Shown: positions 18,571 through 58,322 of the stretch, in pieces
How the letters are laid out: each line of letters opens with the position of its first letter
Position numbering within the stretch: the first letter of the stretch is position 1
Source: Shigella phage ESh15
Sequence record: ON528725
Reading direction: 5' to 3' (one strand)
DNA length: 64,000 nt
Notes under the pieces: generated by a model
What the model saw: the letters and a program-made list of their open reading frames with translations, nothing else
The model's database searches: none
What the model was told of the DNA's origin: nothing
Made by a program: the position numbers and the translations under genes

Positions 18571-20139
18571 ATGACTACTATCAAAACTAAAGCTCAGCTC
18601 GTAGACAAATGGAAAGAACTGCTGGAAGGTGAAGGCCTGCCGGAAATCGCTAATAGCAAGCAGGCTATTATCGCTAAAATCTTCGAAAACCAGGAAAAAG
18701 ATTTCGAAGTATCCCCTGAATATAAAGACGAGAAAATCGCTCAGGCATTTGGTTCTTTCTTGACCGAAGCTGAAATTGGTGGTGACCACGGTTATAATGC
18801 TCAGAACATCGCAGCAGGTCAAACCTCTGGTGCAGTAACCCAAATTGGGCCGGCAGTTATGGGTATGGTTCGTCGTGCTATTCCTAATCTGATTGCTTTT
18901 GATATTTGTGGTGTTCAGCCTATGAACAGCCCGACCGGTCAGGTATTTGCTCTCCGTGCAGTATATGGTAAAGACCCTATCGCTGCTGGCGCTAAAGAAG
19001 CTTTCCATCCGATGTATGCTCCGGATGCAATGTTCTCTGGTCAGGGTGCTGCTAAGAAATTCCCAGCTCTGGCTGCTAGCACACAAACCACAGTAGGTGA
19101 TATCTATACTCACTTCTTCCAGGAAACTGGTACTGTATATCTGCAAGCTTCTGTTCAAGTAACAATCGATGCCGGTGCAACTGATGCTGCTAAATTAGAT
19201 GCCGAAGTTAAGAAACAAATGGAAGCTGGTGCACTGGTAGAAATCGCTGAAGGTATGGCTACTTCTATCGCTGAACTCCAGGAAGGTTTCAACGGTTCTA
19301 CCGATAACCCATGGAATGAAATGGGCTTCCGTATCGATAAACAAGTTATCGAAGCTAAATCTCGCCAGCTGAAAGCTGCTTACTCTATCGAATTAGCACA
19401 AGACCTCCGTGCAGTACACGGTATGGATGCTGATGCTGAACTGAGCGGTATTCTGGCTACAGAAATTATGCTAGAAATCAACCGTGAAGTTGTTGATTGG
19501 ATTAACTACTCAGCACAGGTTGGTAAATCTGGTATGACCCTGACTCCGGGTTCTAAAGCCGGTGTATTTGACTTCCAGGACCCGATTGATATCCGTGGTG
19601 CTCGTTGGGCCGGTGAAAGCTTTAAATCTCTGTTGTTCCAGATTGATAAAGAAGCAGTTGAAATTGCTCGTCAAACCGGTCGTGGTGAAGGTAACTTCAT
19701 TATCGCTTCCCGTAACGTAGTTAACGTACTGGCTTCAGTTGATACTGGTATTTCTTACGCTGCACAGGGTCTGGCTTCTGGTTTTAATACCGACACTACT
19801 AAGTCTGTATTTGCCGGTGTACTTGGTGGTAAATACCGCGTATACATCGACCAGTATGCTAAACAGGATTACTTCACCGTTGGTTACAAAGGCGCTAACG
19901 AAATGGATGCAGGTATCTACTATGCTCCTTACGTTGCACTTACCCCACTGCGTGGTTCCGATCCTAAGAACTTCCAGCCGGTAATGGGCTTTAAAACTCG
20001 TTACGGTATCGGTGTTAACCCGTTTGCTGAAAGTTCCCTGCAGGCTCCAGGTGCTCGCATCCAGTCCGGTATGCCGTCTATCCTGAACAGCCTTGGTAAG
20101 AACGCTTACTTCCGCCGTGTATATGTAAAAGGCATCTAA
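18571..20139 (+). CDS. 23: gp23 major capsid protein
   Basis: 522 aa; long stretches identical to recalled T4 gp23. Confidence 0.98.
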   Translation: MTTIKTKAQLVDKWKELLEGEGLPEIANSKQAIIAKIFENQEKDFEVSPEYKDEKIAQAFGSFLTEAEIGGDHGYNAQNIAAGQTSGAVTQIGPAVMGMVRRAIPNLIAFDICGVQPMNSPTGQVFALRAVYGKDPIAAGAKEAFHPMYAPDAMFSGQGAAKKFPALAASTQTTVGDIYTHFFQETGTVYLQASVQVTIDAGATDAAKLDAEVKKQMEAGALVEIAEGMATSIAELQEGFNGSTDNPWNEMGFRIDKQVIEAKSRQLKAAYSIELAQDLRAVHGMDADAELSGILATEIMLEINREVVDWINYSAQVGKSGMTLTPGSKAGVFDFQDPIDIRGARWAGESFKSLLFQIDKEAVEIARQTGRGEGNFIIASRNVVNVLASVDTGISYAAQGLASGFNTDTTKSVFAGVLGGKYRVYIDQYAKQDYFTVGYKGANEMDAGIYYAPYVALTPLRGSDPKNFQPVMGFKTRYGIGVNPFAESSLQAPGARIQSGMPSILNSLGKNAYFRRVYVKGI

Positions 20140-20163
20140 TCTTAATTGATTAAATCTTATTTT

Positions 20164-20193
20164 GGGAGACTTCGGTCTCCCATTTTTGGTTTT
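20164..20193 (+). terminator. Strong rho-independent terminator after gene 23: GGGAGAC-TTCG-GTCTCCC plus ATTTTTGGTTTT
   Basis: Perfect 7-bp GC-rich stem, UUCG loop, U-run. Confidence 0.85.
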
Positions 20194-20461
20194 ATTTCTG
20201 TGCAATTTTGATGTAAGTTTTCAAAATATTTTGCCAATTAGGCATACCTTCTTGGACATATGCCGGAGAACCGTCTTTGTTTTTGAATGATGCAAGTTTA
20301 TCAGTGGCCCAATAACCTTTAGCTCGAGCTTCAGAATCAACTTTCATCCATACTTTGTTGAAGGCATTACCATTAACTTTTGCACCGTATTTTTCTACTA
20401 ACTTAACGGCTTCAGCTTCCAGAACTTTTAAAGTATCTCTTAAGAAACGTGCTTTAGTCAT
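20192..20461 (-). CDS. Hypothetical 89-aa protein, antisense to the flanking late genes, at the position where T4 carries segD
   Basis: ORF with GAGGAG RBS 8 nt upstream and an early-type promoter motif upstream; no family recognised. Confidence 0.6.
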   Translation of the reverse strand: MTKARFLRDTLKVLEAEAVKLVEKYGAKVNGNAFNKVWMKVDSEARAKGYWATDKLASFKNKDGSPAYVQEGMPNWQNILKTYIKIAQK

Positions 20462-20490
20462 TTTGTTTACTCCTCTGTAGTTGATAAGTC

Positions 20491-20521
20491 TATAGTATCA
20501 CATACCAAATACGTTGTAAAC
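20491..20521 (-). promoter_or_regulatory. Early-type promoter (GTTTAC-N18-TACTAT) for the 89-aa minus-strand ORF
   Basis: Minus-strand reading GTTTACaacgtatttggtatgtgaTACTATagac. Confidence 0.5.
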
Positions 20522-20527
20522 AATCTT

Positions 20528-20535
20528 TATAAATA
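20528..20535 (+). promoter_or_regulatory. Late promoter TATAAATA upstream of gene 24
   Basis: Exact TATAAATA 26 nt before the gene 24 start. Confidence 0.7.
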
Positions 20536-20561: not shown

Positions 20562-21842
20562 ATGAGTAAAATCCAAAAATTATTGCGTGAATCTACAACG
20601 TCTACTAGCAACTCAATCGGTCGCCCAAATCTCGTTGCTTTGACTCGCGCTACGACTAAATTAATATATTCTGACATTGTGGCAACACAAAGAACTAACC
20701 AACCTGTTGCTGCTTTTTATGGTATTAAATATCTTAACCCAGACAACGAATTAACATTTAAAACTGGTGCTACTTATGCAGGTGAAGCTGGATATGTAGA
20801 CCGAGAAAAAATTACTGAGCTCACAGAAGAATCAAAAGCCACACTAAATAAAGGTGATTTTTTCAAATATAATAATATCGTCTATAAAGTGTTAGAAGAT
20901 ACACCGTTTGCAGATATTCAGGAAAGTGATCTAGAATTAGCTCTTCAGATTGCGGTCGTTCATTTAAAGGTACGGTTATTTTCGGATGCAGCGGTAACAA
21001 GCAAATTTGAAAGCTCTGGTAGCGAAATTTCTGATGCAAGATTCCAGATTAATAAATGGCAAACTTCAGTCAAATCTCGTAAACTTAAAACCGGCCTCAC
21101 GGTTGAATTAGCGCAAGATTTAGAAGCGAATGGATTTGATGCCCCTAACTTCTTAGAAGATTTGCTTGCTACTGAAATGGCTGATGAAATTAATAAAGAT
21201 ATTCTTCAATCTTTAATTACTGTATCGAAACGTTATAAAGTTACTGGAATTACTGACACCGGATTTATTGACTTGAGCTATGCGTCTGCTCCGGAAGCAG
21301 GTCGTTCGTTATATCGAATGGTGTGTGAAATGGTATCACACATTCAAAAAGAGTCAACTTATACTGCAACGTTTTGTGTAGCTTCAGCTCGTGCAGCTGC
21401 TATTCTTGCTGCTTCGGGTTGGTTAAAACATAAGCCGGAAGATGATAAGTATCTTTCACAAAATGCTTATGGATTCTTGGCAAATGGATTACCTCTTTAC
21501 TGCGATACCAACAGTCCGTTAGATTATGTTATTGTGGGTGTTGTAGAAAATATCGGCGAAAAAGAGATTGTAGGGTCCATCTTTTATGCTCCATACACTG
21601 AAGGAATGGATTTAGACGACCCGGAACATGTTGGTGCATTTAAAGTTGTAGTTGATCCGGAAAGCTTACAACCGTCTATAGGTTTATTGGTTAGATATGC
21701 TTTATCAGCAAATCCTTACACAGTAGCAAAAGATGAAAAAGAAGCGAGAGTAATTGATGGCGGGGACATGGATAAAATGGCAGGACGTTCAGACTTGTCT
21801 GTTTTACTCGGTGTTAAATTGCCTAAAATTATTATAGATTAA
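20562..21842 (+). CDS. 24: gp24 capsid vertex protein
   Basis: 426 aa; near-identical to recalled T4 gp24. Confidence 0.96.
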   Translation: MSKIQKLLRESTTSTSNSIGRPNLVALTRATTKLIYSDIVATQRTNQPVAAFYGIKYLNPDNELTFKTGATYAGEAGYVDREKITELTEESKATLNKGDFFKYNNIVYKVLEDTPFADIQESDLELALQIAVVHLKVRLFSDAAVTSKFESSGSEISDARFQINKWQTSVKSRKLKTGLTVELAQDLEANGFDAPNFLEDLLATEMADEINKDILQSLITVSKRYKVTGITDTGFIDLSYASAPEAGRSLYRMVCEMVSHIQKESTYTATFCVASARAAAILAASGWLKHKPEDDKYLSQNAYGFLANGLPLYCDTNSPLDYVIVGVVENIGEKEIVGSIFYAPYTEGMDLDDPEHVGAFKVVVDPESLQPSIGLLVRYALSANPYTVAKDEKEARVIDGGDMDKMAGRSDLSVLLGVKLPKIIID

Positions 21843-58293: not shown

Positions 58294-58322
58294 ATAGTAT
58301 CATATCTCAAGGAGAAGTAAAC
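58294..58322 (-). promoter_or_regulatory. Early-type promoter GTTTAC-N17-TACTAT
   Basis: Minus-strand GTTTACttctccttgagatatgaTACTATagacc. Confidence 0.5.

Follow-up and report, generated by a model that had tools for sequence, protein, structure and literature searches.

A PHROG 6003 gene with a predicted early promoter lies opposite in strand to its late-gene neighbours 23 and 24 in Shigella phage ESh15

Introduction

In phage T4, the slot separating genes 23 and 24 is occupied by segD, a minus-strand gene. SegD is a free-standing homing endonuclease of the GIY-YIG type with a length of 223 aa. According to a 2010 review, no segD-specific promoter is identifiable and transcript levels may be vanishingly low (PMC2988022). 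A time-course omics study of T4 published in 2022 classified segD as 'early-RNA_middle-Protein' and detected the SegD protein (PMC9697503 supplements). For RB69, Nolan et al. (2006) predicted an early promoter on the minus strand (Pe:109605), a late promoter for gene 24 and a terminator denoted '23-><-RB69ORF188c' (PMC1524935 supplements).

The second described relative is a protein family. PHROG 6003 is catalogued as being of unknown function (PHROGs), and AWM11879.1 of phage NBG1, WPK33856.1 of AV110, JS98 orf173 and VR7ORF190c are examples of it. Its members are annotated as "hypothetical protein" in more than 200 phage genomes. Among the papers searched by accession and family identifiers, none mentions them, and the HIDEN-SEQ essentiality paper does not cover phages carrying this ORF.

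In this study, we analysed a stretch of 64,000 nucleotides from Shigella phage ESh15 (ON528725), hereafter the window. An initial annotation, made from the sequence, had described an ORF of 89 aa in the gap between genes 23 and 24, antisense to the flanking late genes and placed where T4 has segD. Both statements are correct, as the ORF occupies 20192-20461 on the minus strand and T4 carries segD on the same strand of the same slot. The two loci also share a homologous promoter-like element, a hairpin downstream and an adjacent late promoter, but their cargoes are unrelated. With regard to PHROG 6003, the ORF belongs to the same family over its full length, and the loci examined share slot, orientation and promoter. 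We found no difference between the known members and the window copy, which is an ordinary member of one allele class (class A, see below). As a feature, therefore, the gene is already known, since identical proteins are deposited, the family is in PHROGs and the RB69 promoter was predicted in 2006.

Genomic context and coding evidence

The gap between gene 23 and gene 24 spans 422 nt and holds an intact ORF of 89 aa on the minus strand. The gene order is T4-like (21-22-23-[ORF]-24-rnlB), and the features of the slot, in window coordinates, are as follows:

18571..20139, plus strand: gene 23, coding for the major capsid protein, on the left of the slot
20163..20187 (stem-loop 20163-20182): conserved hairpin GGGAGAC-UUCG-GUCUCCC with a T-run after it, which serves gene 23 as intrinsic terminator (plus strand)
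20192..20461, minus strand: CDS of 89 aa, PHROG 6003 member, stop codon included (ATG 20461-20459, TAA 20194-20192)
20470..20475, minus strand: Shine-Dalgarno sequence GAGGAG, 8 nt upstream of the ATG, with the allele-swap breakpoint directly after it
20492..20521, minus strand: T4-type early (sigma-70) promoter, with -35 GTTTACA at 20521-20515, TG at 20500-20499 and -10 TACTAT at 20497-20492
20528..20535, plus strand: gene 24 late promoter TATAAATA, 6 nt from the early -35 element of the opposite strand
20562..21842, plus strand: gene 24, coding for the capsid vertex protein, on the right of the slot

The region around the ORF shows 99.3% identity to Escherichia phages FP43 and mogra, and 99.2% to Shigella phage SHSML-52-1. 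Relatives with a genus assignment, such as mogra and vB_EcoM_NBG1, are members of Mosigvirus (Straboviridae, Tevenvirinae), and the ESh15 ORF lies in the genome of a T4-like phage of this genus.

The initial annotation recognised no family for the ORF. This is right as regards Pfam, where no family scores above threshold, but not as regards PHROGs: the family HMM of PHROG 6003 matches with E=2.9e-45, aligning residues 1-89 of the ORF with profile positions 1-90 of 90. The B-type alleles introduced below and the distant homologues P0021 and P0023 match the same profile. By tblastn, the ORF was found in 239 phage records. About 120 of them show identities above 95% (three at 100%) and about 119 show identities of 31-37%. 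Phages EP32a, SA79RD and ECO26.1 3-1 encode proteins that are 100% identical to that of the window. No paralogue was found within the 64-kb window.

Selection was estimated by the Nei-Gojobori method on codon alignments. The ORFs of JS98 and LF82-1 gave a dN/dS of 0.125 (13.5 synonymous and 7.5 non-synonymous changes), and comparisons within Mosigvirus gave 0.06-0.08; the resulting range of about 0.06-0.13 refers to unsaturated pairs. Between the window ORF and that of the metagenomic phage L008, pN is 0.23 and pS is 0.71. The ORF is under purifying selection at the protein level. K3, F6, G31, N32, N35 and Q70 are invariant across all clades, while L14, L21, N30, A45 and S57 are near-invariant and position 51 is always aromatic. 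Altogether, the full-length match to PHROG 6003, the occurrence in 239 records and the pattern of codon substitutions establish that this is a genuine protein-coding gene, beyond a chance ORF.

Disrupted copies

In several phages the ORF is broken. In RB69, the type Mosigvirus, the loss of 1 nt, the gain of 1 nt and a cluster of substitutions have left two annotated fragments, RB69ORF188c and RB69ORF189c, of 41 and 29 aa (109291-109531; L007 9292-9532). The RB69 locus is like that of the window in its promoter, late promoter and terminator, and unlike it in that the ORF is split. In mogra, a run of five T is shortened to four, which results in a frameshift. Aligned at the nucleotide level, the window, RB69 and mogra show a mean column identity of 98%, and truncated products of 51-64 aa occur in other records. 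Some disrupted copies may be sequencing errors, those of RB69 and mogra included. If the disruptions are real, the gene would not be needed for propagation on laboratory hosts.

Disruption of the ORF between near-identical flanks is what the initial annotation had named as evidence against the gene, and RB69 and mogra show just that. We read these cases as a dispensable gene and not as a non-gene, because 237 of the 239 copies are in one piece and dN/dS is near 0.1.

A related possibility is that the ORF is expressed but effectively functionless, and that recombination keeps reintroducing it into the slot. Such a gene would be dispensable in RB69 and mogra, would leave products of 51-64 aa in the databases, and could well belong to a family as tiny as this one, which has about ten representatives among 1.84 billion proteins. 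We nevertheless consider this unlikely. The dN/dS is well below 1; 237 of the 239 database copies align without a break across 80% or more of the protein; and the length, the N30-G31-N32-x-x-N35 motif, W/F51 and Q70 are kept in four unrelated phage contexts.

Slot contents and allele exchange

The contents of the slot were surveyed in a spread sample of 1,502 matching records, in which we found the following states:

ORF alone: class-A Mosigviruses (window, NBG1, AV110), JS98 (Dhakavirus), VR20 (Gaprivervirus) and similar metagenomic contigs
ORF and a homing endonuclease: LF82-type Mosigviruses, AV116 or F2-type phages
segD alone: T4, FL33
Another homing endonuclease: Salmonella phage CGG4-1, Erwinia phage Gravdalen
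Empty: most sampled Tequatroviruses; sampled Klebsiella, Citrobacter and Edwardsiella T4-like phages

A diverged form of the ORF sits in the same slot and orientation in JS98 (orf173) and VR20. Metagenomic T4-like contigs carry the ORF in the same slot as well, with 34-70% identity to the window ORF. A scan of IMG/VR returned only nine T4-like loci, all with the same type of slot, and at least four of them match phage records already among those found.

Comparison of the window with LF82-1 delimits the exchanged segment. The two are 98% identical up to 20470, right after the GAGGAG, and homology resumes at 96% from 20195, at the stop codon. These breakpoints indicate that the exchanged unit is the CDS, with or without segD, between a common promoter/RBS and a common hairpin. 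The protein identities of the ORF and its flanks are as follows:

Window and LF82-1: gp23 99%, gp24 99%, ORF 33%
JS98 and LF82-1: gp23 83%, gp24 69%, ORF 93%
JS98 and L008: gp23 92%, gp24 94%, ORF 29%
Window and L008: gp23 83%, gp24 70%, ORF 61%

Hence, the identities of the ORF are decoupled from those of the flanks, which reveals two deep allele classes, A (window type) and B (JS98 type), that are about 33% identical and circulate across genera. Judged by these alignments, the slot between genes 23 and 24 is recombinationally exchangeable, and the predicted promoter with its RBS and the hairpin are kept whichever allele is present. The exchangeable accessory slot proposed in the initial annotation is thus supported by the presence/absence survey, by the breakpoints and by the flank-decoupled identities. 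The deep divergence of the alleles could reflect old neutral divergence plus recombination instead of an arms race.

A tandem duplication of gene 24 (24a, 24b) adjoins the slot in Dhakavirus, Gaprivervirus and related metagenomic phages (L002 335-2899, L003 330-2894, L008 1337-3901). Gene 24 is single in the window and in T4.

Relationship to SegD

In LF82-1 (L013 2501-3430), a gene for a SegD homologue, 57% identical to the T4 protein, starts 3 nt after the stop codon of the B-type ORF. The view that the ORF itself is too small for an endonuclease of this kind proved sound. Kinship with SegD was ruled out by hhalign, which gave a probability of 0.7% against the LF82-1 SegD homologue, and assignment to the GIY-YIG homing endonucleases was ruled out by the length (89 aa versus about 220 aa) and by the lack of a GIY-YIG Pfam match.

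T4 carries segD alone, whereas some Mosigviruses carry the ORF and segD in tandem. With its promoter directly upstream of segD, the T4 layout looks like the tandem layout minus the ORF, and the tandem arrangement suggests how segD entered the slot. In addition, the LF82-1 breakpoints and the tandem order suggest that the B allele may move together with a homing endonuclease.

These observations raise the question of whether the ORF is a passenger or helper of SegD, that is, the remnant of a mobile element or a factor needed for SegD or protecting against it. The SegD homologue lying 3 nt downstream of the LF82-1-type B allele, swap boundaries that enclose both genes and a promoter kept in T4 with segD alone all fit such a role. 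However, the ORF and SegD have no sequence relation, and most carriers among the loci examined (window, NBG1, AV110, JS98, VR20, L008, L017 and L018) are devoid of an endonuclease, while T4 has segD in the absence of the ORF. Moreover, the homologues in rV5-like phages and on a siphovirus contig have small unannotated ORFs as neighbours, and Pfam detects a homing endonuclease in none of these. A dependence on SegD therefore seems quite unlikely to us.

Promoter, ribosome-binding site and transcription

The initial annotation had also assigned to the ORF its own GAGGAG ribosome-binding site and an early-type promoter lying back-to-back with the late promoter of gene 24. The former stands 8 nt from the ATG, and the two promoters are 6 nt apart. 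The early promoter has the form GTTTACA-N17-TACTAT and is TG-extended, the 17-nt spacer ending in TGA; transcription of the ORF is predicted to start near 20485. A generic sigma-70 scan of a 900-nt stretch showed no enrichment, with 2 sites found versus 2.4 expected. The strict T4-early pattern GTTTACW-N13-15-TGnTANNNT is enriched: it has eight sites in the 64-kb window against 0.14 expected, all of them on the minus strand, and the ORF promoter is one of the eight.

The -35 elements of these strict sites start at 58322, 51377, 50194, 46662, 43208, 42764, 35850 and 20521 on the minus strand. They offer a ready map of likely early transcription units in the window.

An alignment of the upstream regions took in the window, LF82-1, JS98, VR20, one metagenomic phage and T4 segD. 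In these six phages the late promoter is invariant (it reads TATTTATA on the minus strand), the -35 element (G/A)TTTACA is near-invariant, the -10 element is conserved and the TG at -15/-14 is present in all except VR20. The early promoter was found in every occupied version of the slot that we compared, T4 segD included. The empty slot of RB14 is 82 nt long and contains the terminator and the late promoter alone; the absence of the early promoter from it indicates that this promoter travels with the cargo.

Going by sequence pattern and alignment, the ORF promoter falls into the early-promoter class of the phage itself and is a homologue of the T4 segD promoter. From the promoter class and the T4 segD homologue we infer, with good support, that the window ORF would be transcribed early.

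Upstream of T4 segD lies TTTACA-17 nt-TATTAT, TG-extended at -15/-14 (NC_000866 ~107253-107281, minus strand; L006 3754-3782), and this element aligns with window 20492-20521. A conserved early-type promoter before T4 segD, which the 2010 review missed, fits the early segD RNA of the 2022 omics study.

On the other side of the ORF, the minus strand forms a stable hairpin 3' of the coding sequence, with no U-tract after it. The hairpin is thus not a canonical terminator in the minus direction, and the transcript may run antisense into gene 23. Such a read-through transcript could have a role of its own. The stem has undergone compensatory changes, reading GGGAGAC/GTCTCCC in the window, GGGACC/GGTCCC in VR20 and GGGAACC/GGTTCCC in T4. 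In VR20 the hairpin is flanked by T-runs in both directions and may be a bidirectional terminator there.

This arrangement leads to a different explanation, in which an antisense RNA and not the protein is selected: the early transcript would enter the 3' end of gene 23, or occlude the late promoter of gene 24, and in this way time capsid expression. Two promoters only 6 nt apart and a minus-strand hairpin that lacks a U-tract, making read-through into gene 23 plausible, are what this explanation would predict. Nonetheless, a dN/dS of about 0.1 and a full length kept down to 31% identity indicate that the protein is selected, and two alleles of unrelated nucleotide sequence share the one slot. 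Most Tequatroviruses lack both promoter and ORF and still make heads, and the homologues in other phage families are not beside capsid genes. We regard selection on the antisense RNA as very unlikely.

Predicted structure of the protein

AlphaFold2, run on an alignment of 15 sequences, yielded a model with a mean pLDDT of 88.8 and a pTM of 0.75. The predicted fold consists of a helix at 3-25, a second helix at 31-48, a beta-hairpin at 56-60/66-70 and a third helix at 76-88. A Foldseek search against the PDB gave no informative match (best E 0.39, TM below 0.45). The structure search of BFVD retrieved only a B-type member of the family, with a TM of 0.76, which shows that the two alleles have a common fold.

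Pfam, NCBIfam, PADLOC and PDB sequence searches returned nothing above threshold. PADLOC models defence systems and not anti-defence proteins, so its silence says little either way. DUF4859, Ca_bind_SSO6904, TatB and a T9SS M6-like protease were set aside as sub-threshold noise; the Pfam DUF4859 hit reached 17.9 bits (E=0.0029), below the gathering threshold of 22.6 bits, and was shared by 3 of the 15 family members. Assignment to the winged-helix DNA-binding proteins was likewise rejected, as structural superposition gave no significant score.

The window protein has a pI of 9.8 and a net charge of about +7.5. Members from T4-like phages are hydrophilic, with pI values of 9.2-9.9 and net charges of +3 to +7.5, and Cys is missing from nearly all of them. 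Family-wide conservation does not extend to any acidic, His or Cys residue. Given the absence of such conserved residues, the lack of any match to an enzyme family and the basic, hydrophilic character of the protein, it probably works by binding and not as an enzyme. Its basic charge points to nucleic acids as the ligand, yet P0021, the Vequintavirinae-type homologue, is nearly neutral (pI 8.0).

Homologues outside T4-like phages

When 1.84 billion representative proteins were searched exhaustively with an HMM, only 10 matched. The true distant members P0021, P0026 and P0027 have 87-88 aa and lie in long co-directional arrays of small ORFs, almost all of which have no Pfam match; P0026 sits on a 141-kb contig, and a homologue of P0021 with 61% identity is encoded by the Vequintavirinae phage ABPH49. 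P0023 (84 aa) comes from a contig with relatives among 42-kb Serratia siphoviruses, where it has the tail-fibre module on one side and the replication module on the other, and P0014 heads a block of small ORFs adjoining baseplate genes. A further word-indexed search with a broader alignment yielded two more rV5-like members only. The neighbourhoods of the distant homologues are the usual sites of accessory or early genes, not of structural ones.

Three of the retrieved proteins were rejected. The large repeat proteins P0022 and P0024 score 2-12 bits per repeat, and their totals are inflated by 9-11 repeats. Kinship with Big_2-like Ig domains would require an all-beta fold, and the matched region is predicted to be helical (pLDDT 87-95). 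P0020 is the chimeric product of a 701-bp contig. The repeats of P0022 look Big_2-like, and P0006, a member of the family, bears the evidently wrong JGI name 'NADPH-dependent curcumin reductase CurA'.

The contexts of the homologues bear on one more alternative, namely that the protein is a head-assembly or capsid-associated factor. A place between the major capsid and vertex genes might suggest this, and the position is conserved in three Tevenvirinae genera. Against it, the ORF is on the opposite strand and has an early instead of a late promoter, neither most Tequatroviruses nor the Klebsiella, Citrobacter and Edwardsiella T4-like phages in the sample have it, frameshifted copies are present in viable phages, and the homologues elsewhere lie in arrays of small co-directional ORFs and not in structural modules. 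A function in the head is very unlikely.

Discussion

Our results make it highly probable that the ORF in the gene 23-24 slot of ESh15 is a real, dispensable accessory gene driven by an early promoter. Its role is far more tentative. A host-takeover or counter-defence binder is the function that we favour, at odds that we put somewhat below even. Taken together, a genuine non-essential accessory gene that would act as an early host-takeover or counter-defence binder has a probability of roughly 0.55, and the four alternatives discussed above fit the data less well.

T-even phages make several small accessory proteins early in infection whose mode of action is binding, such as AsiA, Arn, Dmd and IPI*. 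By analogy, the ORF may be placed beside them for its small size, predicted early expression, dispensability and patchy distribution, but no similarity in sequence or fold to any of the four was found.

In the mechanism that we propose, host RNA polymerase would transcribe the ORF within the first few minutes after infection, on the strand opposite to the late capsid genes and at a time when these are still silent. The encoded protein is predicted to be soluble and basic, of about 10 kDa, with three helices and a beta-hairpin and no conserved residues of the catalytic type. It would act stoichiometrically by binding a host macromolecule, either a protein or a nucleic acid. Such a factor for host takeover or counter-defence may be only conditionally useful, that is, of use on some hosts only. 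The two deeply diverged allele classes might then represent alternative target specificities, and SegD homing may help to move the B allele between phage backgrounds.

A more specific version of this proposal is that the PHROG 6003 proteins act early to inhibit a host target that varies, for instance a defence system or a factor associated with the nucleoid or with RNA. The alleles would constitute a trans-genus polymorphism of specificities, shuffled between Mosigvirus and Dhakavirus, partly by hitch-hiking with SegD. In this full form we think the proposal doubtful, with some chance of being right.

As a feature of the genome, the ORF is ordinary: both the hypothetical gene and the plasticity of this region in T4-like genomes were known before. 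It has a modest value as a candidate for functional screens, being a single-gene unit with its own early promoter. Two natural alleles can be swapped between flanks that are 99% identical, and RB69 and mogra would provide natural knock-outs.

The ORF of the Mosigvirus AV110 (WPK33856.1; L014 2872-3141) differs from that of the window by one residue. A preprint of September 2026 on AV110 reportedly describes an early growth-inhibiting peptide, 'Emp', that targets the Mre elongasome; Emp is probably a gene other than WPK33856.1.
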